From an uncultured Acidobacteriota bacterium (GTDB lineage Bacteria > Acidobacteriota > UBA6911), in the NCBI GenBank assembly GCA_963827655.1, contig CAWHCF010000051.1, positions 13,322 through 77,321 on the forward strand: a stretch of 64,000 bases of DNA. The letters are read 5' to 3'. A program made the position numbers and the translations under genes. Below the pieces are notes generated by a model. It searched no databases, had not been told where the DNA came from, and saw only the letters and a list, made by a program, of their open reading frames with translations. Shown here piece by piece: positions 14,922 to 53,931 of this stretch. Each line of letters starts with the position of its first letter. Position 1 is the first letter of the stretch.

Positions 14922-14968
14922 GATTTTCTCTCCTTTATTGCGCTGGTGCTTAACCGATTTTTGGAGAA

Positions 14969-15123
14969 CCGTCCCCGTTCCCGTTCCCCGTTCCCGTTCC
15001 CGGTCAATCAAGTATAGCTGCGGATTCAGTCGCTAACCCACTGGGCCTGAGATATCGGGGTCGTAAACGGCATTACTATAGGATACCGCCGGAAAAACGG
15101 GAACGGAAACGGGAACGTGTACG
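14969..15123. repeat. CCCGTT/AACGGG hexamer-array inverted repeat in a divergent promoter region
   Basis: CCGTCCCCGTTCCCGTTCCCCGTTCCCGTTCCCGG ... CCGGAAAAACGGGAACGGAAACGGGAACG. Confidence 0.8.
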
Positions 15124-15194
15124 AGGAGGAAATCCCCAGTTTGTAAAGCACCCTTCTTTGCCTCTTGCCATCTTCGTGGTAAGTTGTCCTTCCT

Positions 15195-18858: not shown

Positions 18859-20802
18859 ATGAAAGACGAGATTATCTGGCGGCCTTCGGAAGAGTATTCG
18901 GCTTCGGCGAACGTTCGCCGTCTTATGGACCGGCACGGCATTAATAGCTATGCCGAACTCCTCGCGCGCTCGGTGGCCGACATTCGCTGGTTTTGGGAAG
19001 CGTGTCTGGACGACCTGGGCGTCCAGTGGTATGCGCCTTATAGCGAAGTCCTCGATGATTCCCGCGGCTTTCCGTGGGGCCGCTGGTTTGTGTCGGGAAA
19101 GATTAACCTGGTTCACAATTGCCTGGATCGTCACCTCGAAACTCGTCCGGACCAGGTTGCAGTTTTGTGGGAGGGGGATGACGGACAAACGCGGACGGTG
19201 ACTTATCGGGATCTGAATTCGGAAGTGTGCCGGATCGCGGCCGGCATGCATGAACTCGGCATCGGCCGGCACGACACGGTCGGTATTTACATGCCGATGG
19301 TTCCGGAAATCGTGGCGGCGTTGTTCGCGGCCTGGAAGATCGGGGCGGTCGCGGTGCCCGTATTCGCGGGGTTTGGTCCGGAGGCGCTCGCGGTGCGGCT
19401 GCGCGATTCGGGCGCGAAGCTCCTTTTCACGGCCGACGGATCGTACCGTCGAGGGAAACATGTTCGCACCAAGGACGCGGCCGACCAGGCTCTGCAGTCG
19501 GTTCCGTCCGTCAAGTCGGTGATTGTACTCCGGCGCACCGGTGAGCCGATCTCCTGGGTCGATGGGCGGGATCTCTGGTGGGACCGCGTGGCCGTCAACT
19601 CGTCGGCCGATGTTCCGACCGAGCAGCTCGACGCCGAAGACCTTTGTCTGGTTCTCTACACCTCAGGAACGACAGGCCGTCCGAAGGGAACGCTTCACAC
19701 GCAGGGCGGTACGTTGGCGAAGGTTGCAAAGGAGCTCGCCTACTTCATGGACGTGAAGACCGGCGATCGATTCTTCTGGCTCACGGATATGGGATGGATG
19801 ATGGGCCCCTGGGAAATCATCGGGACGACATTCCTGGGAGCGTCGGTGCTTCTGTTCGAGGGAGCGCCCAACTGGCCCAACCCGGACCGTGTGTGGGAAA
19901 TGGTGGACCGGCATCGACTCACGCACCTGGGAATTTCTCCGACGGCCATTCGCCTTCTGCGTCGTTCGGGCGATGCCTGGGTGGAACGTCACGACCTGGA
20001 CTCGCTTCGGATTCTGGCGTCGACCGGGGAGCCCTGGGATCTGGAATCTTATCTCTGGTTCTTCCACAAGGTAGGACGCGGACGCCGCCCTATCATCAAT
20101 ATCTCGGGCGGCACCGAGCTTATGGGCTGCCTGCTGGCAGCGCCGCCGATGTCAGAAATGAAGCCTTGCTCGCTCGGCGGACCCGGGTTGGGCATGGATG
20201 TGGACGTCGTTGATGACGAGGGAAGACCGGTCCGCAATACGCTGGGTTATCTGGTGCTCAAACAGCCTGCGCCGTCGATGACCCGCGGCTTCCTTAATGA
20301 TCCGCAGCGATATATCGAGACCTACTTTTCACGCTGGCCCGGCGTCTGGTTCCACGGGGATTGGGCGCTGGTCGACAAGGACGGTTTCTGGTTTATCCAC
20401 GGCCGCGCGGATGACACCATTAAAGTTGCGGGCAAGCGGACGGGACCCGCCGAAGTTGAATCCGCGCTCATTGCGCACGAAGCTGTCTCCGAAGCTGCGG
20501 CCATCGGAATTCCTGACGAACTTAAAGGGGAGACCGTCGCCTGTTTTGCAGTCCTGAAGCCGGGAAACGAGTGGAGCGATAAACTCTCCGAAGACCTCTC
20601 CGACCAGGTGGTGGAACACCTGGGAAAGACCCTTCGACCCAGGTTCATCTATTTTGTCAGCGCTCTTCCCAAGACGCGTTCCGGGAAAATCGTGCGCGGC
20701 GCGATCAGACGAAGGTTTCTGGGCGAAAGCGACGCGGATATTTCGTCGATCGAAAATCCCGAGGCGCTGGAAGCAATCCCACGATTGACGATTGACGATT
20801 GA
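18859..20802 (+). CDS. acs: Acetyl-/acyl-CoA synthetase (AMP-forming)
   Basis: YTSGTTGRPKG, STGEPW, GRADDTIKVAGKR, LPKTRSGKI; the stop codon falls inside the heptamer repeat. Confidence 0.88.
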   Translation: MKDEIIWRPSEEYSASANVRRLMDRHGINSYAELLARSVADIRWFWEACLDDLGVQWYAPYSEVLDDSRGFPWGRWFVSGKINLVHNCLDRHLETRPDQVAVLWEGDDGQTRTVTYRDLNSEVCRIAAGMHELGIGRHDTVGIYMPMVPEIVAALFAAWKIGAVAVPVFAGFGPEALAVRLRDSGAKLLFTADGSYRRGKHVRTKDAADQALQSVPSVKSVIVLRRTGEPISWVDGRDLWWDRVAVNSSADVPTEQLDAEDLCLVLYTSGTTGRPKGTLHTQGGTLAKVAKELAYFMDVKTGDRFFWLTDMGWMMGPWEIIGTTFLGASVLLFEGAPNWPNPDRVWEMVDRHRLTHLGISPTAIRLLRRSGDAWVERHDLDSLRILASTGEPWDLESYLWFFHKVGRGRRPIINISGGTELMGCLLAAPPMSEMKPCSLGGPGLGMDVDVVDDEGRPVRNTLGYLVLKQPAPSMTRGFLNDPQRYIETYFSRWPGVWFHGDWALVDKDGFWFIHGRADDTIKVAGKRTGPAEVESALIAHEAVSEAAAIGIPDELKGETVACFAVLKPGNEWSDKLSEDLSDQVVEHLGKTLRPRFIYFVSALPKTRSGKIVRGAIRRRFLGESDADISSIENPEALEAIPRLTIDD

Positions 20803-20942
20803 CGATTTACGATTGAGGACCACTTCGGGAAAGTTTCCCGGTGAAACCCACAGGGATATTGTGTCGATAGAATATCCCGCGAGGTTTGACGATTGTCGGT
20901 TGTTGGTTGAAATCGTCAATCGTAAATCGTAAATCGTCAATC
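20781..20942. repeat. GACGATT/AATCGTC heptamer-array hairpin (site B)
   Basis: ACGATTGACGATTGACGATTGACGATTTACGATTG ... AATCGTCAATCGTAAATCGTAAATCGTCAATC; ~95-nt loop. Confidence 0.93.
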
Positions 20943-20998
20943 GGCTCGGCTTGCTGTGATAGAATAGACACCAGTTAACGTCCCCCCGGAGGGTGATC

Positions 20999-21873
20999 AT
21001 GAAACGACGCGATTTCCTGAAGTGCGGCGCCCTCGCAGGCGGCGCGGCTACCGTCAGCCTGCACAACTTCCCGTACCATTTATTTGCCGCAGAGAAGAAA
21101 AAATACGCTCAGGACATCATCACCCTTGGAAGAACCGGCATCCGCCTCTCGCGGCTTGCCCAGGGGACCGGCACGGTCGGCTCCAAGAAGAGCTCGAACC
21201 AGACCCGAAAACTGGGCCTGGAAGGCCTGGCCGATCTTTTTCGCGCCGGGGTCGACCAGGGGCTATCTTTCTGGGACACCGCTGACGGCTACGGAAGCCA
21301 TCCGCATATCAAAGAAGCGTTGAGAACCGTCAAGCGCGAAAAGGTAGTCATCATGACCAAAACCCGGGCCAGCACCGAAGCCGAGATGCGCGCCGATCTC
21401 GAGCGCTTCCGTCAGGAACTGGGCACCGATTATATCGACATCTTGCTGCTTCACTGTATGCTCGATGCCGATTGGCCGCAGAAGAAAACCGGAGCCATGG
21501 CCGTGCTGAGCGAAGCCAAAGAAAAGGGGATCATCGAGCCCACGGCGTCTCATGCCACACCCTGGGCGCTTTGAAAACGGCAGCGGCGACCGATTGGGTG
21601 GAGATCGACCTGGCCAGGCTGAATCCGATCGGCTCGCACATGGATGCAGATCCGGCGACAGTGGTCCCGGTATTGCATGAAATGAAATCGAAAGGGAAGG
21701 GCGTTATCGGAATGAAAATCCTGGGCGAGGGGGATCTCCGGCATGAGGTGGATAAAGCTCTGCAATATGCCCTGGCGCAGGACGTCCTGGATTGCTTCAC
21801 GATAGGCGCCGAAAATCAAGGCGAACTGGCAGGTTTGCTCAGCAAGATCCCCGCTGCCAGCGTTCGAGCCTAA
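20999..21873 (+). CDS. Aldo/keto reductase with Tat signal (frameshift near 21535)
   Basis: MKRRDFLK, LGRTGIRLSRL..GT, FWDTADGYG, LGTDYIDILLLH, GVSCH, GMKILG. Confidence 0.9.
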
Positions 21874-21887
21874 CCGGAGGTGAAACC

Positions 21888-22676
21888 ATGTATCGACGTG
21901 CCAGTCTAATTGTAGTTCTGCTGAGCTCTGTTCTGGTGTGGGCGGCGGACAAGGATTTCTGGGACACGAAGCCCTACAGCGAATGGAATGATAAAGAAGT
22001 CGAAAAACTGCTGAAGAACTCCCCCTGGTCGAGGAGCGTAACCCTCAGCATGGGGACGATGGGAGCGCCGGGCTATGGCAACGAATCCCGGCAGCAGTAC
22101 CCGCGCACCTCCGGCGGAGCCGGCACCCAGACTCCCGGCGGAGCCGGCACCCAGACTCCCGGCGGCGCTGAGAGTGACCCCGTCGGCGGCGGGCAGCGAG
22201 GCCCCGGCGGGGTGGGTGATCCTTCAGAAAGGCCCAGCATCCCGCTCGTCGTCCACTGGTACTCCCGGCCCGTTCGGGAAGCCTTCGCGCGCCGCGTCCA
22301 ACTTCGCAAGCCTGAAGCGCCTAAGGAGCAGCTGGATAGTCTGCTCAATTACGACGACCCGACTCACTTTGCCATCCTGATCACCGGCTTCCCGGGGAAT
22401 ATGCCCGGCAGCGCGCCGGCCGAACTCGTCCAGAGACTAAAAGAAGAGACTTATCTTCAGAAGAAGAACAAAGAAAAAATTCCGCTGGCGGAGGTCGTAC
22501 CGCCTTCCGGACCGGGGCAACCTTTAATCCTGAAGTTTCTCAGCGAAGCCGATGGAAAACCGGCCCTGACGCTGGAGGACAAAGAGGTAGAACTGGTATC
22601 GAGACTGGCGGGAGATTCGTTGCGAGCCAAGTTCAAGCTGGCGGATATGGTCGTGAACGGGAAGCTCGAACTCTAA
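21888..22676 (+). CDS. Secreted hypothetical protein with Gly-rich linker
   Basis: RBS GGAGGT, signal peptide, FWDTKPYSEWNDKEVEKLLKNSPW, C-terminal KFKLADMVVNGKLEL. Confidence 0.75.
   Translation: MYRRASLIVVLLSSVLVWAADKDFWDTKPYSEWNDKEVEKLLKNSPWSRSVTLSMGTMGAPGYGNESRQQYPRTSGGAGTQTPGGAGTQTPGGAESDPVGGGQRGPGGVGDPSERPSIPLVVHWYSRPVREAFARRVQLRKPEAPKEQLDSLLNYDDPTHFAILITGFPGNMPGSAPAELVQRLKEETYLQKKNKEKIPLAEVVPPSGPGQPLILKFLSEADGKPALTLEDKEVELVSRLAGDSLRAKFKLADMVVNGKLEL
22111..22165 (+). repeat. Perfect 24-bp in-frame tandem duplication (GGAGTQTP x2)
   Basis: CCGGCGGAGCCGGCACCCAGACTC twice, plus a partial third unit. Confidence 0.9.
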
Positions 22677-22688
22677 GAGAAATACCTG

Positions 22689-22745
22689 CCACCACAAGGA
22701 CGCGAAGCCGCGAAGAATCTTTCGCGGCTTCGTGCCTTCGTGGTC
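22689..22745. repeat. Nonamer-family hairpin between convergent genes
   Basis: ACCACAAGGACGCGAAGCCGCGAAGA-atc-TTTCGCGGCTTCGTGCCTTCGTGGT. Confidence 0.8.
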
Positions 22746-23607
22746 AAAACAACACCTGGGCCAGACGCTTCCGGTACTCTTCCGCCAGGTCGCTTCTTTC
22801 CCCAACCAGCGCGAACACGGTCAGCATCGCCTTGCGCGCCGTCTGGTCTTGAAAATTCTTGTCACGGCTCAGGACGGAAAGAAACTCCTCCAGGGCTCCG
22901 CGGAAATCACCAGCCACAACCAGGCAGCAGGCATGAGCGTACCGGGCTTCGAGGTTCGTCGGTTCTGCCGCCGCGCGCGCGGCGGCTGCGTCCGGTCCAC
23001 CGTTTCGAGTGCAGACGACCTGGAATTCGAGCGATTGCTTGAGCTGCTGGGCTTGGCCCGACGCCGGCGACGAAACCGAAACCCGGTTCCAGAATGACTC
23101 AGCTCCGGCCGTGTCGCCCGCGGTGGCGCGCATCTTTCCCAGCTCCACCAGAGCGCCCCCATGAGACGAATCGAGTTCGAGCGCGGATTCAAACTCACGT
23201 TGCGCCTCGTCGGGAAGCCGGCGCTCGAGCAGCGCCAGCCCCTGGCTGTACTTGCGGTCGGCGGCGGTTGGACAGTGCTTGCGCAGAAAACTACGCGCCT
23301 TGCTTTCGGAAACGGCGCCCATGAACTCGTCCACCACGGTGCCGTTCTTGAAGAGTTTTACATTGGGAATGCTCCGGATGGCAAAGTGTTCCGCGAGTTC
23401 CGGATTCTCTTCGGTGTTGACTTTGGCCAGCAGGAAATCGCCTCCGAATTCCTCAGCCAGGCGTTCCAGGACGGGACTCAGAACTCTGCACGGCCCGCAC
23501 CAGGCCGCCCAGAAATCAACGGCCACTGGACGCTTGAACGATTCGTCAATTACCGACTTCTGGAAGTCGGAGAGCTGCACATCTCTCACGTGAAGGGCTG
23601 TCGCCAC
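22744..23607 (-). CDS. cnoX: Thioredoxin-TPR chaperedoxin CnoX/YbbN
   Basis: VDFWAAWCGPC thioredoxin domain plus C-terminal TPR ending YRKRLAQVLF. Confidence 0.88.
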   Translation of the reverse strand: MATALHVRDVQLSDFQKSVIDESFKRPVAVDFWAAWCGPCRVLSPVLERLAEEFGGDFLLAKVNTEENPELAEHFAIRSIPNVKLFKNGTVVDEFMGAVSESKARSFLRKHCPTAADRKYSQGLALLERRLPDEAQREFESALELDSSHGGALVELGKMRATAGDTAGAESFWNRVSVSSPASGQAQQLKQSLEFQVVCTRNGGPDAAAARAAAEPTNLEARYAHACCLVVAGDFRGALEEFLSVLSRDKNFQDQTARKAMLTVFALVGERSDLAEEYRKRLAQVLF

Positions 23608-23625
23608 TCGAAAACCCCTTTCCGC

Positions 23626-23745
23626 CGATTGCAGATTTACGATTGACGATTGACGATTTAAAAATCAATAGTCAACGTTTGCTGCCAGGCTATCCGTCAA
23701 TCATCAATCTGCAATCGTCAATCGTCAATCGTACAATCGTCAATC
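23626..23745. repeat. GACGATT/AATCGTC heptamer-array hairpin (site C), overlapping the P450 3' end
   Basis: CGATTGCAGATTTACGATTGACGATTGACGATTT ... CAATCATCAATCTGCAATCGTCAATCGTCAATCGTACAATCGTCAATCG. Confidence 0.9.
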
Positions 23746-25069
23746 GGCCCAGCATGCCATGCTTGGGCCGGAGCGTAATGAGCGGCTGAAGCTTCACTGG
23801 ATGCCCCGGAACGAGCCGCATGCTCCACTTCTGTGCCAGAGTAGCCAGAACCAGCACTCCTTCGAGCCATGCGAAGGATTCCCCGATACAAACCCGCGGA
23901 CCTCCGCCGAACGGGAAGTAGGAGAACTTGGGACGCGCAGCCTGAGCTTCCGGCGTCCACCGTTCCGGATCAAACCGGTGCGGATCCGGGAAGAAGCGCG
24001 GGTCATGATGCATCACAAACGGGCTCATCAAGACGATGGACCGCTCCGGCAAAAGGTAGTCATCGATTCTGTAGGGGCTCATGGCGCGGCGGCCGATGGC
24101 CCAGGCGGGTGGATAGAGGCGCATGGCCTCGGAAAACACCATCTCGGTATAGCGTAATCTGGGCACATGGTCGAGGGTGGGGAGCTGGCCGGCGAGCACG
24201 GCCTTGAGCTCTTCGTGCAACCTGGCTTCTGCATCAGGATTCTGTGACAGCAGATACCAGCTCCACGTAAGCGCATTGGCCGTGGTTTCGTGGCCGGCGA
24301 GAAAAATGGTCATGGCCTCGTCGCGCACCTGAAGATCAGTCATGCCGCCGCTGTCCCCCTCCTCGTCCTGAGCCAGAAGGAGCATGGAGAGAAGATCGCC
24401 CCGGTCGACCCCGCGCGCGCGGTGTTCGTGGATGATCCGGTAAATCGTGGCATCGAGACGCTCGCGCGCTCTTCGAAATCGGCGATTGCTGGGAAGCGGA
24501 AGCCGGTCGACGACACCGGAAAACGGCGTCGTGACTCGCCTGAATACTTGCATGACGTCGGTAAGGGCCTGGCCGATCTCTTTGGCCTCCGCCTCCACGT
24601 CGGCATCAAACAGGGTTTTTGCGACGATCGAGAGGGTGAGGCGCATCATCTCCTGCGCCATATCCACGGTGGCGCCTTCTTGCCAGCGCTGCGCCAGGCG
24701 GGCGCTGTAGTCGGCCATCACGCCTCCGTAGGCGGCGATCCGGTCCCGGTGGAATGCAGGCTGAGCCAGGCGTCGTTGACGGCGGTGAAATTCATCCTCG
24801 CTGGTCAGCAAACCGTTGCCGAGGAAGCGCCGCGCAATCTCGAGCCCGCGGCTCTTGTGAAATAGACGGCTGTTGGTTACCAGCACATCCCTGATGTAGT
24901 CGGGATGGTTGAGCAGGAAAACGTCCTGCGAGCCCAGCTTGAAATGAACGATATCGCCATAGGTTTGAGCCAGCGTGGTCAAGAAACCGATCGGGTCCCG
25001 GCGGAATTCAAACAGACTGCCGAAGATCGGCTTGCCCTTTGGTCCTTGCGGGCGTACGGCGGCTGTCAT
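23690..25069 (-). CDS. Cytochrome P450
   Basis: AGHETTA I-helix, EAMR (ExxR), [16 protein letters not shown] heme ligand. Confidence 0.96.
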
Positions 25070-25122
25070 TCAAACCCTCTCTTTTTGGGCGTCTTCACAT
25101 GCTTTTGCGGTGAGCTTCGCCT

Positions 25123-26046
25123 TTAACTCAAGGGACGGGAGGCGCTGACGGGATAGTATTGATCGATTTTCTTCTTGAGGAATTCGACGCTGCGAGCCAT
25201 CTGCTCCAATCCGTCGACGCCGTCTTCGACCGAAATCCACCCGCAATAGTTGATCTCACGAAGGATTTGAAAGATGGCGTCGTAGTCATTCAACCCTTTG
25301 CCGATCTCTCCGTGAAGCAGGTCGGGCGAGTAGCCGAGAGTCCCGTCAGCCTGCTTCAGATCCTGCAGCCGGGCGTTTCCTTTCAGGTAGCGATCCGAAG
25401 CCTGCATGGTGACAACGCGATGTTTCACCTTCCGCAGGAAGTCGACCGGGTCTTCGCCCGCGAGTATGGAATTGCTGGGATCGTATTGCACACCGAAGTT
25501 GGGTGAATCGATCTGTTCAATGATCTTGAGGTAGACCTCGCTTCGCTGGGCAAATTCCGGGTAGCGCCAGAGCCCGTCTTTGTAATGATTCTCCATGCAC
25601 AGAGTGACGCCGCGGGGAAGGGCATATTCCAGGCTGGCTCGAATTCCCTCGACGGCCCAGCGCACTCCGTCCTCCGGAGACGTCTCCGGATGTCTCTGCC
25701 CGGAGAGCGTCCGGCAATAAACGGTTCCCAATTTCAGACTGAGGTCGATGGCCTCCTCCTGACGGTGGAGCTGGCGAACGCGCTCGGCCGCATCGGGATG
25801 AGTGAAATCAGGCGAAAAGCAGAGCATGGATGTGCGCAATCCGGCTCTGTCCATGGCAGTGAGCACCTGATCAAGCTCTGCGGCATCGCGCCGCTGGAAG
25901 AAGCCGTCATACATTTCGATGGCCTCTATGTCCAGTGTCGCGGCCTCATCGATCCACTCGAGAAGCGACATCCGGGCACTGCAGAGCTGGTCGAAATAAG
26001 CTTTGGGAAAAACGGAAACGGATGGCCGGCTTGCCTGGGCGTTCAC
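25123..26046 (-). CDS. Sugar phosphate isomerase/epimerase (xylose isomerase-like TIM barrel)
   Basis: LCMENHYK, YDPSN, GWISVED. Confidence 0.85.
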   Translation of the reverse strand: MNAQASRPSVSVFPKAYFDQLCSARMSLLEWIDEAATLDIEAIEMYDGFFQRRDAAELDQVLTAMDRAGLRTSMLCFSPDFTHPDAAERVRQLHRQEEAIDLSLKLGTVYCRTLSGQRHPETSPEDGVRWAVEGIRASLEYALPRGVTLCMENHYKDGLWRYPEFAQRSEVYLKIIEQIDSPNFGVQYDPSNSILAGEDPVDFLRKVKHRVVTMQASDRYLKGNARLQDLKQADGTLGYSPDLLHGEIGKGLNDYDAIFQILREINYCGWISVEDGVDGLEQMARSVEFLKKKIDQYYPVSASRPLS

Positions 26047-26675
26047 TTTAGCAGTAGTTTCGCCCCTTCTTCCTTGGACAGCGGGCGGATCTTGACGTTA
26101 CGGAAAGAGACCTGGCCGTGGTCTCCCTGCAGCCGGAGAGGGCCGGGGGCGTCGTCACGTTCGCTGCTCGCCCCGGTCCCCTTGGGACCTACGTCGATAT
26201 TGTCGAGTATCTTCTGGTTGTTGTGGCGAACCGTGAGGCGCTGGCCGACAAAGACGATGTCAAACGCTTCCCACTCGCCCACTGGTTTGCAAGCGTTCTT
26301 GGCGGGTGTGGTACGGCGATAGAGCGCGCCGCAGCTACCGAAGTCAGACGGCTTGCCATGGCTATCAAGGATCTGGATTTCGTATCGATCGCGCATGTAG
26401 ACACCCGAGTTGCTGCCGGGCGCAATCTTGAACTCAACGTGGAGTTCAAAATCATTAAAATCCTTGTCGGTCATAAGGTCCGTCCCTTTGGCCGCAGTGG
26501 TGTAAACTCCGTTCTCGACTTTCCAGAGATTCGGACCGTCGGGCTTGCGAAGATGCCAGCCCTGAAGATCTTTTCCGTTGAAGAGGGAAATCCAGCCATC
26601 GGAATACAGGTTGCCCGCGGACAACGTTCCAATGATCGATAGAATAGAAACTTGGATGACGGATCGGGTTCTCAT
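26043..26675 (-). CDS. DUF1080 family (3-keto-disaccharide hydrolase-like) secreted protein
   Basis: WISLFNGKDLQGW, NSGVY, YEIQILD, LQGDHG.VSFRNVKIR. Confidence 0.9.
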   Translation of the reverse strand: MRTRSVIQVSILSIIGTLSAGNLYSDGWISLFNGKDLQGWHLRKPDGPNLWKVENGVYTTAAKGTDLMTDKDFNDFELHVEFKIAPGSNSGVYMRDRYEIQILDSHGKPSDFGSCGALYRRTTPAKNACKPVGEWEAFDIVFVGQRLTVRHNNQKILDNIDVGPKGTGASSERDDAPGPLRLQGDHGQVSFRNVKIRPLSKEEGAKLLLK

Positions 26676-26770
26676 GCGGACTCTCTTCCTCCTCGAATGC
26701 TATTGCCGTGCCCCAACGACTTGATCCAACCATAGTCTGGTTCGGGTTTAGATTTCAATACATGTTTTTC

Positions 26771-26951
26771 CGATTGCGGATCATCTCCGATTGCGGATTA
26801 TTCCGATTGCGGATTGCGGATTTCAGATTGCGGATTGGAAAAAACGGAGCATGCTGTTGGGTCGACAGTCACGTGCGCGCACTATGAAACAGATAACGAA
26901 ACAATCCGCAATCCGACAATCCGCAATCCGAAATCCGCAATCCGCAATCGG
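26771..26951. repeat. TGCGGAT/ATCCGCA heptamer-array hairpin in a divergent intergenic region
   Basis: CCGATTGCGGATTGCGGATTTCAGATTGCGGATTG (26803..26837) vs CAATCCGCAATCCGACAATCCGCAATCCGAAATCCGCAATCCGCAATCGG (26902..26951). Confidence 0.93.
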
Positions 26952-26952
26952 A

Positions 26953-28137
26953 ATGGCCGAGTTCTTCGGGCTTCGCGCCAATATCGTGGCGTTGCTGGCC
27001 GCGATAATCTTTATCGGCAGCGGCGAGGAACTCTGGATTCGATTTGTGCCCAAGTACCTCGAGGTTCTTGGCGCCGGAACTTTTGTAATCGGGATCTACG
27101 ACGGCCTCAAGACACTGCTGGGTGCGGTGTACGCTTACCCCGGCGGGATCTTGACCGATCGATGGGGACACCGGAAGGCGCTGTCGTTTTTTACGGCGCT
27201 CTCGATCGCCGGGTACCTCATTGTCTATGCGATTCCGCACTGGGCCGCTGTCCTGGGAGCCACCTTTCTTTTTCTGGCCTGGGCTTCGTTTTCGCTTCCG
27301 GCCACGTTCTCACTGGTGGGCACGAACCTTGCGCCGGAAAAATATGGAATGGGAATCGCCCTGCAGTCGATCATCAAGCGTATTCCGGTTCTGATTGGAC
27401 CGGTTTTGGGCGGTATCCTGATCGACAGGTTCGGCCTGCATGCCGGCATCCGTATTGGGCTCCTGGCCTCCGCCGTCCTGGGGTTGATTGCGATGCTGGT
27501 CCAAAACAGGATTTCCGAGATTGAGTTGCGCGGCGCGAAGGACGTCCCGCTGCGGTTTCGCTTTGCGGTTGGGCAGTTCCGGCCGGAACTGCGGCGTCTC
27601 CTTCTGTCAGACATCCTGGTTCGCTTCTGCGAACGCATCCCGGCAGCCTGGGTGGTTATCATGGTAATGTCGCGCGCCGGCTTGAGCGCCAGGGAATTCG
27701 GCTATCTAACCGCATTGGAAGTTGCCGTCGCGATGCTCTGCTTCATACCGGTCGCCTACCTGTCGGATCGTTATGGTCGAGAGCCTTTTGTGATCTTGAC
27801 CTTTGTGTTTTTCACGCTCTTTCCCCTCGCCTTGCTTCAGGCGCAGACCTTGTCCTGGCTCGCGCTCGCCTTCACGATTCGTGGTTTGAAAGAGTTTGGC
27901 GAGCCTGCGCGCAAGGCGCTCATCATTCGGTACAGCTCCGGCTCGAATCAAGGACAACTGATAGGGGCGTACTATCTGATTCGAGACATTACCGTCACAC
28001 CGGGGGCGCTGCTCGGCGCCTGGTTGTGGGCCGCCGGACCCGAGGTCAATTTTTGGGGAGCATTTCTTTTCGGTCTGCTGGGCACCGCGTACTACGCCTT
28101 GACGGTAGCACGTATTGCATTGACGATTTACGATTGA
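26953..28137 (+). CDS. MFS transporter
   Basis: About 12 hydrophobic segments, GGILTDRWGHRK and LSDRYGRE motif A. The N-terminal 54 aa of ORF 26791 is repeat-derived, so the start is placed at MAEFF. Confidence 0.88.
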   Translation: MAEFFGLRANIVALLAAIIFIGSGEELWIRFVPKYLEVLGAGTFVIGIYDGLKTLLGAVYAYPGGILTDRWGHRKALSFFTALSIAGYLIVYAIPHWAAVLGATFLFLAWASFSLPATFSLVGTNLAPEKYGMGIALQSIIKRIPVLIGPVLGGILIDRFGLHAGIRIGLLASAVLGLIAMLVQNRISEIELRGAKDVPLRFRFAVGQFRPELRRLLLSDILVRFCERIPAAWVVIMVMSRAGLSAREFGYLTALEVAVAMLCFIPVAYLSDRYGREPFVILTFVFFTLFPLALLQAQTLSWLALAFTIRGLKEFGEPARKALIIRYSSGSNQGQLIGAYYLIRDITVTPGALLGAWLWAAGPEVNFWGAFLFGLLGTAYYALTVARIALTIYD

Positions 28138-28207
28138 CGATTGACGATTGAAACCAGATGGCGGCGCGCCTCTTTAAATCGTCAATCGTCAATCGTAAAT
28201 CGTCAAT
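28119..28207. repeat. GACGATT/AATCGTC heptamer-array hairpin (site D)
   Basis: Perfect 31-bp inverted repeat (28119..28149 / 28177..28207); left arm identical to site A. Confidence 0.95.
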
Positions 28208-28217
28208 CGTCTGTGGG

Positions 28218-37282: not shown

Positions 37283-37327
37283 GGTTGTGTTTCTTGGCGT
37301 CTTGGTGTCTTCGTGGTTAGGCTGAAG

Positions 37328-38632
37328 TCAGGGCCGGTTGAGATACTTTTCGTAGAGCCGGGTGTGTTTGGTTTCGAGGCTGACATTCTTTCCGGCGATA
37401 AACAGATGTTTCACCTGTGTCCGTATCTCGAGCAAGTCGCCGTCCGTAACCACGAGGTCGGCGATTTTCCCAGTCTCAATGCTTCCCACTTTGGCTGCCA
37501 CACCCAGGATTTCCGCGGGATTCAGAGTCACGGCCTTCAGCGCGTCTTCGTGAGAAAGGCCGTAGGCCTCGGCGAACCCGGCTTCGTAGGGCAGATTCCT
37601 GACTTCTGAGCTGCTCGACGAGGTCAGTGCGAACTTGATCCCGGCCCTTGCCAGATCGCGGGGCAGCGTGAACCGGGCGTCATAAGGATCGTCCTCCCGG
37701 TCGGGCAAGGCGACGATCGAGCCGAGTATGACCGGAATATTCTCTCGCTTCAAAAGCTCCGCTGTCTTGTTGGCCTCGCGTCCGCCCTGGAGAACGACCT
37801 TCAGCTTCTCTTTCCTGGCGAAGTCGACCGCGTTCTTGATGTCGCGTTCGGAATCAGCCTGCAGGAATACCGGCAATTCTCCTTTGATCACCGGAACCAG
37901 GGCTTCGAGCTTCCGATCTCTTTCCGTGCCGGGATTGGCTCCGCGAGCTTTGTCGTAGTGGCGGGCCGCCTCGAACAGATCGGACAGTTCCTTGACTCGC
38001 TTTTCGTAATTGCGCTTGATTTCAGCGAAGCTTCGTCGCTGCGCGCCGCCCCGGCCCCCGCCGCCGGCGCGAGAACGTTGAGCCGGGTCGAGACTCGGAA
38101 AGTCAAGGACCAGTCCCGCAGATTTCAGGAGGGCCATTTCGTCAACAGTCCAGCCGTCGAGATGGAGCAAGGTCGCCTGGCCCGCGATGATGCCGCCCGA
38201 AGGGGCGCTCACACTGGCCGTGATGCCGTTCACGCGGGCAACGGGAATGTGTTCGCTGGCTGGGTGGATGGCGGTGAATGCCAGCAGGTGAGGATTATAG
38301 TCACCCATCTCGGAGGCGTCGTTGGTGGCCGGAACCGATGTGATCTCGGTCAGCCCCAGATTGCTCCAGGCATTGATCATCCCGGGATAAACTTCGAGTC
38401 CCTGACCGTTGATTATCTGCGCGCCGGCCGGAATCTTCACCCCCGCACCGACGGCGGCAATCTTGCCATCAACGACAACCACGGTGGCGCGAGACAGCGT
38501 TCCGGACGAGCCCAGGGTGTGAACCTTGGCGTCTCGTATGGCATAGACCCGGTTGTCGCCGGCCGCCCACCCGGCCAGCGCAAGAGCGGAGAGCGCAAGC
38601 GTCCAGTTCACCAGTGTGATTGGTTTTCTCAT
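37328..38632 (-). CDS. Amidohydrolase-family protein, secreted, lacking the HxH metal ligands
   Basis: VYPGMINAWSNLG in place of DxHxH; TLNPAEILG, GSIETGKIADLVV. Confidence 0.85.
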   Translation of the reverse strand: MRKPITLVNWTLALSALALAGWAAGDNRVYAIRDAKVHTLGSSGTLSRATVVVVDGKIAAVGAGVKIPAGAQIINGQGLEVYPGMINAWSNLGLTEITSVPATNDASEMGDYNPHLLAFTAIHPASEHIPVARVNGITASVSAPSGGIIAGQATLLHLDGWTVDEMALLKSAGLVLDFPSLDPAQRSRAGGGGRGGAQRRSFAEIKRNYEKRVKELSDLFEAARHYDKARGANPGTERDRKLEALVPVIKGELPVFLQADSERDIKNAVDFARKEKLKVVLQGGREANKTAELLKRENIPVILGSIVALPDREDDPYDARFTLPRDLARAGIKFALTSSSSSEVRNLPYEAGFAEAYGLSHEDALKAVTLNPAEILGVAAKVGSIETGKIADLVVTDGDLLEIRTQVKHLFIAGKNVSLETKHTRLYEKYLNRP

Positions 38633-38643
38633 GATCAACCTCG

Positions 38644-40065: not shown

Positions 40066-40095
40066 GATCTACGGCCTTTCTGGTGGTGCCGGCAT

Positions 40096-40568
40096 AGAAG
40101 CCAGGAGTCAGAAGTCAGAAGCCAGAATCGCCTTTGCATATGCATTCAGCAGGCGGCTGACTTCCTCCAGGAGATTCATCCTTCCTTCTTGAGGTCTACC
40201 GTAACCTAGGTCGTGTGCCAGCATCAGGTAGTAGCGGCTCTCTTCAAGCGAACCCTCGGCAATGTTCATGAATCGCGCTTTGTCGGCCTTGCCTCGCCGC
40301 TTGAAACCTTCTGCAACGTTCGCCGGTATGGACACGGCGGCCTTTCGCATTTGCTGCACCAGGCCATAGATCTCGCGCTGCGGGAACGATTCCGTGTAAC
40401 GATACACTTCGAGCACAAATTCATGAGCTTTCTGCCATACCAGTAGATCGCGGAAGGTCTTTGCGCTTGGCCGCTGTGCTTGCATCATATTACTCCATCT
40501 CGTGATGTTATCCTTTCAGGTAGTGCGACCCCCTTCTTGCTCCTGACTCCTGACTTCTTGCTTCTGAC
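40096..40568. mobile_element. Candidate element: four-helix-bundle gene bracketed by inverted AGAAGTC-type heptamer arrays
   Basis: Left arm 40096..40127 AGAAGCCAGGAGTCAGAAGTCAGAAGCCAGAA; right arm 40534..40568 TTCTTGCTCCTGACTCCTGACTTCTTGCTTCTGAC. Mobility is inferred, not shown. Confidence 0.55.
40108..40488 (-). CDS. Four helix bundle protein (23S rRNA IVS protein / TIGR02436 family)
   Basis: FRDLLVWQKA, FPQREIYGLVQQMRKAAVSIPANVAEG, IAEGSLEE..Y.L.LA.DLGY. Confidence 0.95.
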   Translation of the reverse strand: MMQAQRPSAKTFRDLLVWQKAHEFVLEVYRYTESFPQREIYGLVQQMRKAAVSIPANVAEGFKRRGKADKARFMNIAEGSLEESRYYLMLAHDLGYGRPQEGRMNLLEEVSRLLNAYAKAILASDF

Positions 40569-40603
40569 GTGAACAAAATTCTTCGTAAGCTCGGGCCAAC
40601 GGT

Positions 40604-41968
40604 CTAGAAGAGTCCGGCTCGGGCTTTTCCGCTGAGGGAGGAGCTTCCCTCGCAGCGGGAAGATTCCGGCTCAGGAATGTCGAATTTTGCCCCGTCGATG
40701 AAAACATGCTTCACGCGCGTACGCGAATCGAAGAGGTCGCCGGTGGCAACTACCAGATTCGCGGTCTTTCCCTTTTCGAGACTGCCGAACCGGTCGGCAA
40801 CGCCGAAAATCTCGGCCGGCGTCAAGGTAAGAGCGCGCAGGGCGATATCCTTGTCCAGACCGGCTTCGATGCTTCTGCTGATATTGCGCATGAAGTCGCG
40901 CGGATTTGTCATGTCCCCCGACTGGAAAGCGAATTGAACTCCGGCCCGGGCCAGGGCTGCTGCGGTGCCTGGCGCTGCCACTCTGCGACGCAGCACCTGC
41001 AGCTCCTCTTCGGCCGCCGGGTCTGCTTCGCGGTCTCTTTCCGGAAACTTGACTGACAAAAGCACCGGTACCTTGTTTTCCTTGAGCAGGGCGGCGGCCG
41101 TGGCAGCCTCCAGACCTCCATTGAGAATCATCTGGAGCTTGAAGGAATCTGCCAGGTTGATGGAACGCTCGATTTGCGCCGGCGTGTCACCCGGGAGCAC
41201 GACCGGCATCTGCCTTTTGAGCGCCGGCTGAAGAGCCTCGAGCGCCCGGTCATATTCAGGCCGCTCCGCGCCGCGATTCGCGTTGTAGATTCCCCACGCC
41301 CTTTCGTAGTGCTGGGCATCCAGGAGCTTCTGTTTTACAAACGCAAGAACTCCCATCAAGGAACTCGGGTAACTTCCTCCGAAGCCCCCGCTGGTCTGCA
41401 ATCCGATGTGCATCGCGACCGGTGACTTGACCACCATCTGGCCCGCTCTGATTCCCGATAGATTGATCAGCGCGCTTTGCCCCGGGAACAGACCTCGCCG
41501 CGGCGCCACGAGCGCGATGGTGATTCCTGAGGCGCGCGAGGCCTCGATCTTCCTGTTTGCCAGATTGATGATGTCGGCCGCGCTCACGTGCGGGGTCAGT
41601 GGCTGGCGCTCTTCCGGCGTGGCGGCGGGCGATTGCTGCGCCGGGACACCGGGACGGGCTCCAGGCGTTGTTCCCGCCGGCGGGCGCGGTTCTTCGAGTG
41701 TTGCATCGGACAAGCTGTCGATCAGCCCGGGATAAATCGTCAGACCCGTGGCATCGATAATACGGGCATCACCGGGCAAGGACACGCTCTCTCCGAGCGC
41801 TTCGATGATTCCGCCGCGGATCAGGATGGTCCCCTTCTCGATCGGCGCTGTCGAAACCGGGATCAGCCGCGCGTTGGTAAGGGCATAGACGGGCGGCTCG
41901 CCGGTCCGGACGCCGGGCGCCGCTGCCAGAACGAGCCCGATCAGGGCAATGATTCGAAACGACGTCAT
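40604..41968 (-). CDS. Amidohydrolase-family protein, secreted, lacking HxH (possible frameshift near 40660 extending it to 40516)
   Basis: IYPGLIDSLSD, YPSSLMG, ALTLTPAEIFG, GSLEKGKTANLVV. Confidence 0.85.
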   Translation of the reverse strand: MTSFRIIALIGLVLAAAPGVRTGEPPVYALTNARLIPVSTAPIEKGTILIRGGIIEALGESVSLPGDARIIDATGLTIYPGLIDSLSDATLEEPRPPAGTTPGARPGVPAQQSPAATPEERQPLTPHVSAADIINLANRKIEASRASGITIALVAPRRGLFPGQSALINLSGIRAGQMVVKSPVAMHIGLQTSGGFGGSYPSSLMGVLAFVKQKLLDAQHYERAWGIYNANRGAERPEYDRALEALQPALKRQMPVVLPGDTPAQIERSINLADSFKLQMILNGGLEAATAAALLKENKVPVLLSVKFPERDREADPAAEEELQVLRRRVAAPGTAAALARAGVQFAFQSGDMTNPRDFMRNISRSIEAGLDKDIALRALTLTPAEIFGVADRFGSLEKGKTANLVVATGDLFDSRTRVKHVFIDGAKFDIPEPESSRCEGSSSLSGKARAGLF

Positions 41969-41981
41969 CCAGATCCTCCTG

Positions 41982-42050
41982 TTGCGTCTTCGTGGTTAGA
42001 GTGTCGAACAAATACCACGAAGACACAAAGACACGAAGAAACGCCAAGAA
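41982..42050. repeat. Nonamer-family inverted repeat
   Basis: TTGCGTCTTCGTGGTT ... TACCACGAAGACACAAAGACACGAAGAAACGCCAAGAA. Confidence 0.8.
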
Positions 42051-53890: not shown

Positions 53891-53931
53891 AATGACAAAT
53901 GATAAATGACCAATGACCAATGATAAATGAC
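53891..53931. repeat. AATGAC(C/A) heptamer tandem array (STRR2-like), directly after the glcD stop
   Basis: AATGACA AATGATA AATGACC AATGACC AATGATA AATGAC. Confidence 0.9.

Follow-up and report, generated by a model that had tools for sequence, protein, structure and literature searches.

A 64,000-nucleotide stretch of an uncultured Acidobacteriota genome (the window, on contig C51) contains a small gene for a four-helix-bundle (FHB) protein, P0001, enclosed by two arrays of tandem heptamers that are complementary to each other in inverted orientation (the arms). Comparison of this cassette with its copies in the same genome and with relatives elsewhere shows that gene and arms travel as a unit which, judged from the distribution of those copies, is mobile, has spread horizontally, carries repeats specific to its protein clade and appears to have multiplied as non-autonomous copies inside termini resembling those of an insertion sequence (IS). 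Our interpretation, to which we give an even chance of being right, is that the unit is a selfish, horizontally mobile cassette whose arms would pair in the transcript, whose protein would read its own repeats and whose family would be moved by a second protein, P0002. The source genome assembly comprises 8.18 Mb in 53 contigs with 59% G+C and is 90% complete. Gene calls are approximations by longest open reading frame (ORF), and the thresholds for arrays were set for this analysis.

An earlier note on this DNA had described the FHB ORF as lying between inverted heptamer arrays, with its own TGA inside one of them, and both statements hold. P0001 matches PF05635 (E 2.3e-35, 121.5 bits against a cut-off of 33.8, residues 13-115) and TIGR02436 (E 3.1e-34, 117.5 bits, cut-off 24). 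Its stop codon occupies 40108-40110, within the 3' arm at 40096-40127, which Tandem Repeats Finder (TRF) reports as a period-7 array of 4.6 copies. The same program reports part of the second array (40540-40555), and by a repeat finder 40096-40121 and 40533-40558 form a pair of 26-nt arms with 85% complementarity, separated by 411 nt. In the RNA fold predicted for the 496-nt unit, both arms close the structure in the minimum-free-energy and the centroid solutions (-179.8 kcal/mol, z -3.17, with none of 100 shuffles equally stable). The flank-complementarity score of the locus is 17; 392 control small ORFs have a median of 8, with 10 and 16 as the 95th and 99th percentiles. In the window's copy the order of the unit is IS-like left terminus, 5' arm, 5' untranslated region (UTR), FHB ORF and 3' arm, and a right terminus of about 50 nt, which we call the trailer, is missing (coordinates are given in Table 1).

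Among solved structures, 2GSC (E 9e-22) and 2RLD are nearest to P0001, and both were deposited as five chains. The kinship previously proposed for the family, with proteins encoded in rRNA intervening sequences (IVS) and with Avd, the accessory protein of diversity-generating retroelements (DGR), also stands. It rests on the PF05635 and TIGR02436 matches, both Avd models being under their cut-offs (PF22296, 21.7 bits where 40 are needed; NF033474, 31.4 where 80 are needed). A promoter consensus scan of the cassette gave a sole match, ATAACA-16-TATGAT, which overlaps the start codon; a leader promoter picked by eye, TAGACC-N17-GAGAAT, was dropped, as it matches at 8/12 positions and falls under the scan threshold. 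Contigs of three RNA libraries from three studies (X1, X2 and X4) match 40096-40565. These are Logan contigs with small word shares that reveal no RNA ends, so that they indicate presence only; none lies on the flanking genes, a lack of cover that carries no weight. Rfam gave no family, rRNA included, in the window or at the 10 other FHB loci of the genome.

The genome contains 12 PF05635 matches at 11 loci. When read by eye, all 11 loci are flanked by inverted short-period arrays, and the repeat unit differs by protein type (Table 1). The enrichment proposed earlier was found in the flank-complementarity scores of these loci (17, 8, 10, 24, 8, 14, 10, 21, 14, 12 and 12), seven of which exceed the control 95th percentile of 10; the four low scores belong to broken or truncated FHB copies.

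A single-protein search with P0001 extended this result to other genomes. The 80 best loci (61-78% identity) come from Acidobacteriota, Nitrospirota, Verrucomicrobiota, Desulfobacterota, Dadabacteria, Balneolaceae, Anaerolineales, Calothrix (Cyanobacteria), Planctomycetota, Bacillota and others, with the closest records mostly from Acidobacteriota, Bryobacterales and Terriglobia included. A flank score of at least 14 was reached at 44 of the 73 usable loci. Where enough flank was available for controls (68 loci), 42 reached it, as did none of 68 displaced and none of 68 shuffled controls, and 39 of these 42 have arms with a 7-nt period. At least two AGRA[GAT] words are present in 43 of 44 arms and RATT[GT] words in one of 44; the median arm length around these relatives is 4.6 units. 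For the protein type that goes with CAATCGT arms, 63 of 301 genomes searched in the phylum had a match (43-63% identity), and 20 of 28 loci scored at least 14 (displaced controls, 0/25). Among those 20, AGRA words occur at none and RATT[GT] words at 11. TCATTTG-like arms were seen at L009-type proteins in two relatives, G007 and G008. All these tallies include an unpublished genome, G034 (locus L117, score 9).

The repeat family follows the protein clade, both within the genome and between genomes, with AGRAGNC arms in the clade of P0001, GATTGNN-type arms in a second FHB clade and TCATTTG-type arms in a third. FHB genes thus do not simply land in whichever hairpin is resident, an explanation that this result rules out. 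Two groups of P0001 relatives deserve mention in their own right. In Balneola (L076, L086) the arms have an 8-nt unit, TTCAGGAG / TTCAGAAT, and not one of 7 nt. In Calothrix, L083 has AGAATTC/AGGAGTC heptamer arms (score 17), L089 a weak short match (12) and L091 none; these loci may connect the heptamer repeats of cyanobacteria with the PF05635 family.

When the window unit was compared with the genome by blastn, four full-length copies were found, the window's alone being intact, together with 15 shorter ones in which about 75-130 nt remain at the 5' end and about 100-140 nt at the 3' end. Some of the shorter copies have the same deletion junction (q126-130/q413-414 in four, q141-143/q393 in two, q87/q399-401 in two), which indicates spread after deletion. 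The copies at C28:1877 and C49:444257 have the same upstream flank and may represent one duplicated place. A gene-less hairpin with hexamer arms at 14948-15152 of the window is, on the strength of its end-to-end matches (Table 1), an internally deleted copy of a second, hexamer-armed FHB cassette family.

All copies of the window's family start about 38 nt before the 5' arm (TAGACCGTTATGTCCGAGCTTATGAGAATTTTGTTCACAT), and the trailer, about 50 nt beyond the 3' arm (..CCCGCTGCTTTTGGCGGGATATCAAGGGCGCAGCCCTTGCCTGGTTAG), is present in 14 of the 18 listed copies. Going by these common ends, it is the IS-like termini lying outside the arms, and not the arms, that delimit the mobile unit of this family. 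The trailer also occurs at 13 of the 80 loci of P0001 relatives, where the FHB gene is arranged head to head with a second gene. In one genome (G328) the two genes make up a 2.13 kb unit with sharp common boundaries in four copies, three intact and one frameshifted, and its two ends match the trailer and the leader of the cassette copies. The second gene encodes P0002, a protein of 538 aa for which more than 3,772 relatives exist; their contigs typically measure about 2 kb, as does the element. In five further genomes (G329-G333) the far end of the elements aligns with the leader of the copies in our genome, exactly from its TAG, and in the full-length copies on C4 and C26 a remnant of about 35 nt from the beginning of the P0002 gene still lies between 5' arm and FHB leader. 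The window unit is best read as a non-autonomous derivative of this IS-like element, minus P0002 and the right terminus. Genes for mobilising enzymes of other kinds are few in the genome, namely a group II-like reverse transcriptase (RT) that seems to be split, an RT fragment and a single Y1_Tnp-like gene, and genome-wide none of them is near the arrays; the RVT_1 matches are confined to C22:192008 and C49:4426 and adjoin none of the 11 FHB loci.

The cassette had been described as interrupting a co-directional amidohydrolase cluster. It does split a run of three minus-strand genes, all of them for amidohydrolases, and comparison with the orthologous clusters, which had been suggested as a check, identifies it as an insertion: in none of the nine relatives with both flanking amidohydrolase genes on one locus is there an FHB cassette between them. 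The junction has a short spacer in G005, G019, G017 and G026, and a longer upstream gene and no hairpin in G004, G009 and G021. Gene-less hairpins of other heptamer families are found there in G007 (GATTGCG) and in G028 (CAGGCTT, where the upstream gene is longer as well). Contigs of another data set (X12), about 98% identical to the window on both genes, depart from it at 40090 and 40634, close to the ends of the unit. The presence of the cassette, of hairpins of other families and of these departures at one junction shows that elements have landed there repeatedly. In the window, the upstream amidohydrolase ends at the first TAG of the element. Insertion at stop codons as a rule is ruled out, the first TAG being the stop of a long upstream ORF in one of 13 copies. 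As a separate observation, the upstream amidohydrolase has an extra C-terminal domain of about 110 aa in G004, G028, G009 and G021 (L015, L016, L019, L021) that is absent in the source genome, G005, G017, G019 and G026.

The cassette was also proposed to belong to a wider population of hairpins, and the genome-wide search bears this out. Stretches that are self-similar at a lag of 7 nt (at least 18/21 self-matches) number 503, against 3-25 at lags of 4-6 and 8-11. With a looser detector, 585 heptamer arrays of at least 24 nt were found: 334 of the CAATCGT type, 105 CAATCCG, 43 TCATTTG, 31 AGAAGCC, 22 AATCCTA and 50 others. Of the neighbouring same-family arrays separated by less than 150 nt, 152 pairs are inverted and 18 direct. 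Their polarity is fixed in each family, as in 5'-(ACGATTG)n-loop-(CAATCGT)n-3', and is kept by 100 of 100 CAATCGT pairs, 31 of 31 CAATCCG, 11 of 13 TCATTTG, 4 of 4 AATCCTA and 5 of 5 AGAAGCC pairs. The short hairpins, 153 in all, have a median loop of 39 nt. By our crude ORF calls, 78 of them lie in gaps between co-directional genes, 27 in convergent and 16 in divergent gaps and 32 inside ORFs, tight against the gene ends (median distance 8 nt to the left gene and 5 nt to the right). The distribution of arm length has a peak and does not decay: rounded to whole units, 143 of the 306 arms have 5, 87 have 4 and 51 have 6. Hexamer arms likewise have about 5 units.

TRF confirms as inverted period-7 pairs all six of the other sites in the window that the earlier note had listed as inverted heptamer arrays enclosing loops of about 20-95 nt. 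The note's further proposal, that gene-less hairpins are deleted copies of cassettes, held in part. The internal-deletion derivatives described above bear it out for one heptamer family, that of the cassette itself, and for one hexamer family. The six named sites, which belong to the CAATCGT and CAATCCG families, do not fit, since arms alone are shared and not loops or flanks; more generally, hairpins of the CAATCGT, CAATCCG and TCATTTG types match their gene-loaded cassettes in the arms only, their loops and flanks being mutually unrelated. A tblastn search for FHB remnants in 11 long loops of CAATCGT and CAATCCG hairpins gave a best E of 0.036. Where ordinary genes stand between arrays, the arrays are mostly of opposite polarity, that is, the gene lies between two separate hairpins (28 cases). 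Pairs in hairpin polarity that are wider than 300 nt number seven, of which two enclose FHB genes, and a third FHB gene is inside an array pair that our script scored as direct. The idea that a period of 7 was chosen to place stops in all frames is ruled out by the two FHB subfamilies that use hexamers and also by the GATTGCG arrays, which, as read, have no stop codon.

Some hairpins occur in series. At C22:225327-236961 they separate tandem genes of about 2.7 kb (about 770-890 aa), and at 20781-28211 of the window they lie in gaps between smaller genes. At C14:138688-139332, a CAATCGT array pair in hairpin polarity, 579 nt apart, surrounds a small complete hairpin and also an apparent transposase-like ORF fragment in which no FHB similarity was found. 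A solo AATGACA/AATGACC array of 5.9 copies is present at 53891-53931 of the window, with no inverted partner detected nearby.

Related genomes were searched with the pattern (GATTGNN)3GATTG, one mismatch being allowed; the reversed pattern, used as a control, gave 0-20 matches per genome. There are 541 matches in the source genome, 316-408 in G007, G028, G035 and G039, 1-54 in 13 more, and zero in 23 of 41 relatives. All 18 genomes with the pattern (G034 among them) have PF05635, and all 8 genomes without PF05635 lack the pattern, a comparison among kin that are not independent. A close L010-type gene (54-63% identity) was found in G007, G035 and G010, and a fragment only in G039, which is 63% complete.

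How such a cassette might work can be outlined by analogy. The element landed at the extreme 3' tip of the upstream amidohydrolase gene, which now terminates at the first TAG of the element. In the polycistronic transcript, the arms would pair into a stem of 26-32 bp around the FHB mRNA, and RNase III, for which the source genome has a gene, probably cuts the cassette out of the flanking cistrons or insulates it from them. Such a cut might, speculatively, take away the FHB stop codon as well, since it is situated in the 3' arm. The FHB protein may bind its own clade-specific arrays, a suggestion made by numbers only, namely the arms of about five units and the pentameric solved homologues; such binding would also link the protein with the gene-less hairpins of cognate sequence, which number in the hundreds. 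The window's family would be moved in trans by the 538-aa P0002 of a full-length IS-like element. A more specific proposal, which we regard as rather unlikely, is that an FHB pentamer is a putative ring-shaped reader of a repeat code, each of its subunits taking up one of five tandem units (heptamers or hexamers). It is just as doubtful that its target would be single-stranded RNA or DNA, with a unit of its own for each clade, and the idea that the gene-less hairpins could be dispersed sites for the control of stem formation, RNase III cutting or hairpin copying is offered with the same reserve.

Several observations weigh against the selfish cassette. The association between clade and repeat is by itself linkage and not recognition, and can stem from plain co-inheritance of linked DNA. 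One relative (G028, 92% complete) has 316 matches to the array pattern and no close cognate FHB gene was found in it, so that arrays can outlast the gene. The CAATCGT hairpins have no common loop or flank sequence, and their origin is therefore not explained by deletion. The 13 close relatives of P0001 that bear the trailer are mostly without the 5' arm, so that the gene can evidently dispense with arms. P0002 was not found in the 90% complete source assembly, and it has no match in Pfam, NCBIfam or PDB sequences. Its C-terminal winged-helix domain (residues 374-499, Z about 10 in a model) is the sole domain recognised; the model of the whole protein has a pLDDT of 62 with residues 239-371 unmodelled, the N-terminal domain modelled alone from 5 sequences has a pLDDT of 38, and the neighbours in the ESM Atlas are all 'hypothetical'. 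P0002 is therefore a candidate for a new family of transposases on its copy number and termini, and those termini are themselves imperfect: the ends of the element, TTAGACCGTTATG.. and ..GCCTGGTTAG, are only loosely inverted, with TAG/TTAG at both, and neither a variable duplicated flank nor any target duplication beyond TAG/TTAG was found.

Other explanations were weighed. The arms could be sites at the DNA level, acting as cruciforms or single-strand hairpins, in a pure DNA transposon for which the FHB protein serves as a DNA-binding accessory. Such a transposon would account for the IS-like termini that bound the family, for the deletion derivatives, which resemble those of miniature inverted-repeat transposable elements (MITEs), and for the pairing of FHB with P0002 in multicopy 2.13 kb elements whose P0002 relatives are so numerous on contigs of that size. 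It fits less well with the position of the arms inside the termini and with their retention at about 44 of 73 loci that lack IS termini (the leader is present at 0/80, the trailer at 13/80). Moreover, the elements that bear P0002 are mostly without a 5' arm, and PMC4990558 describes the same gene-in-stem arrangement, processed as RNA, in rRNA. We consider this explanation doubtful. Alternatively, the heptamer hairpins could serve the host as intergenic elements, whether as mRNA stabilisers like the repetitive extragenic palindromes (REP), as terminators or as operon insulators, with the FHB genes as unrelated passengers that happen to land or persist preferentially in hairpin loops. The 153 hairpins sit in gaps of every gene orientation, packed against gene ends, and some lie between tandem paralogous genes; the unrelated CAATCGT loops and the hundreds of arrays in G028 that have no detected cognate gene point the same way. 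Against this, the arms track the protein clade and not the host, AGRAGNC arms accompanying P0001 relatives across many phyla, and all four P0001-type copies in our genome have AGAAGCC arms although CAATCGT arrays are tenfold commoner (334 vs 31). Among the 41 related and hence not independent genomes, moreover, the pattern is missing wherever PF05635 is missing (8/8) and PF05635 is present wherever the pattern is (18/18). A role for the hairpins in host service with the genes as passengers is thus distinctly unlikely.

It is also conceivable that the arms are merely an autoregulatory operator of the FHB gene, through binding at the mRNA ends or hiding of the ribosome-binding site, and that the gene-less hairpins are functionless relics. 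The 3' arm contains the stop codon and some 45 nt separate the 5' arm from the start codon, so that neither stem cutting nor protein binding would leave the mRNA unaffected; three of the four full-length copies, moreover, are broken. The CAATCGT arms of gene-less hairpins, however, are near-perfect, of one polarity in every pair and peaked at five units, unlike the outcome of neutral decay, and close relatives beside P0002 do without arms. We judge the operator to be very unlikely.

The selfish cassette has parallels in known systems. PMC4990558 describes the IVS in helix 45 of the Coxiella burnetii 23S rRNA, which encodes S23p, as a 28-bp stem with GACAGAT heptamers that RNase III cuts within the stem. 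There the tandem heptamers of the stem region vary in number between strains, the element is regarded as selfish, the S23p homologue forms a toroidal homopentamer, and ORF-bearing IVS are cited from Leptospira and Xanthomonas (PMC4990558). The present cassette is alike in that a PF05635 gene lies inside a long terminal stem (here predicted, from 26-nt arms of 85% complementarity). It differs in standing in a protein-coding operon between amidohydrolases and not in helix 25 or 45 of a 23S rRNA gene, in having IS-like termini outside the arms and in being accompanied by hundreds of gene-less hairpins of cognate repeats; in addition, RNase III cutting, described for the IVS, is for the cassette a prediction. 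Avd (PMC10053308) is a homologous four-helix bundle that binds nucleic acid within a system of mobile information, but no RT adjoins any of the 11 FHB loci, there are no template or variable repeats, and the Avd models stay under their cut-offs.

The numerous short dispersed copies that have both termini of a longer element, common deletions and intergenic sites are like MITEs. The presumed autonomous element, unlike that of MITEs, encodes a protein, P0002, of no known transposase family, its inverted repeats are imperfect and target duplication is not clear; the derivative, furthermore, still carries a conserved intact gene that is not a transposase between internal inverted arrays. REP and bacterial interspersed mosaic elements (BIME), and the REPINs with their RAYT (REP-associated tyrosine transposase) genes, are high-copy intergenic hairpin repeats, each family tied to one cognate Y1 (HUH) transposase gene. 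Here the cognate gene is FHB and not Y1, and the arms are tandem heptamers and not a unique palindrome. The single Y1_Tnp-like gene of the genome (C35:41712-42383, 223 aa, IS200/RAYT-type) has no heptamer array within 3 kb. The short tandemly repeated repetitive (STRR) sequences of cyanobacteria are intergenic tandem heptanucleotide arrays with several families per genome, and we know of no link between them and PF05635 genes or inverted pairing.

No function is known for the very common PF05635 and TIGR02436 proteins, and the 23S rRNA IVS have been unexplained since about 1990. The genome described here ties both to a wider phenomenon, in which cassettes occur in ordinary operons, their arms follow the clade and gene-less hairpins number in the hundreds, and an abundant, unannotated IS-like element carries at least one of the cassette families. 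With four or five protein types, each having a repeat unit of its own, this one organism offers concrete testable pairs. For annotation, it matters that a cassette interrupts the operon in which it stands and can supply the upstream gene with a new stop codon. If the proposed reading of a repeat code were true, PF05635, among the largest uncharacterised bacterial families, would consist of programmable repeat-binding proteins and be tied to a new class of mobile intergenic hairpins. Already in print are the Coxiella IVS heptamers and PF05635 as an IVS- and Avd-like family, described as uncharacterised and IVS-encoded in PMC10053308 and bioRxiv 10.1101/2024.02.27.582315. New are the census, the link between clade and repeat, the five-unit peak, the deletion series and the IS-like vehicle. 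A literature search, with most subscription journals outside its reach, gave no paper on heptamer-armed PF05635 cassettes outside rRNA or in operons, nor on heptamer hairpin swarms in Acidobacteriota, clade-specific arms, gene-less cognate hairpins or the P0002 element.

Table 1. Coordinates of the cassette, its neighbours, gene-less hairpins and related loci. Plain positions refer to the window; others carry a contig (C) or locus (L) name.
Feature	Position	Strand	Remarks
Whole repeated unit, 517 nt	40090..40606	-	bounds set by paralogues (blastn against the genome)
Intact FHB gene, 126 aa, protein P0001	40108..40488	-	PF05635 / TIGR02436
3' arm, about 4.6 heptamers TTCTGGC/TTCTGAC (coding strand)	40096..40127	-	encodes last residues and stop of P0001
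5' arm, about 5 heptamers GTCAGAA/GCAAGAA/GTCAGGA (coding strand)	40533..40568	-	complementary to 3' arm
5' UTR with Shine-Dalgarno-like GAGATGGAG	40489..40532	-	conserved in the alignment of the four full-length copies
IS-like left terminus TAGACCGTTGG..GAATTTTGTTCACG	40569..40606	-	first TAG = 40604-40606
Upstream amidohydrolase, 454 aa	40604..41968	-	
Downstream amidohydrolase, 473 aa	38644..40065	-	start 30 nt beyond 3' arm
Third neighbouring amidohydrolase	37328-38638	-	
Gene-less heptamer hairpin, GATTGCG type	5226..5310		
Gene-less heptamer hairpin, ACGATTG/CAATCGT type	5617..5693		
Gene-less heptamer hairpin, ACGATTG/CAATCGT type	20781..20943		loop 93 nt
Gene-less heptamer hairpin, ACGATTG/CAATCGT type	23626..23746		
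Gene-less heptamer hairpin, GATTGCG/CAATCCG type	26768..26949		
Gene-less heptamer hairpin, ACGATTG/CAATCGT type	28119..28211		
Gene-less hexamer-armed hairpin (CCGTTC / GGGAAC, about 5 units)	14948..15152	-	matches both ends of C14:39149 and C29:139943 cassettes
FHB loci with AGAAGCC arms	window's gene; C32, C26:254324, C4		the three paralogues broken
FHB locus with CAATCGT arms	C26:290717		
FHB locus with GATTGCG arms	C6:206841		
FHB locus with TCATTTG arms	C26:213018		
FHB locus with AATCCTA arms	C46		truncated copy
FHB loci with GGGAAC hexamer arms	C14, C29		
FHB locus with CACGTG-like hexamer arms	C25		
2.13 kb IS-like element	L151:1031-3158 (G328)		also L150, L152, L153; L157-L161 in G329-G333

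Repeats of a different period were noted around the amidohydrolase genes. Two 8-nt-period motifs of the TCTTGGCG / CACGAAGA types, at 37290-37315 and 42013-42048, are mutually inverted and bracket the three-gene cluster. Genome-wide, TRF gives 843 period-8 rows, and similar GTCTTGGCG words adjoin several copies of the cassette; an X12 contig has a related CGCAAAGA repeat at a position without the cassette.

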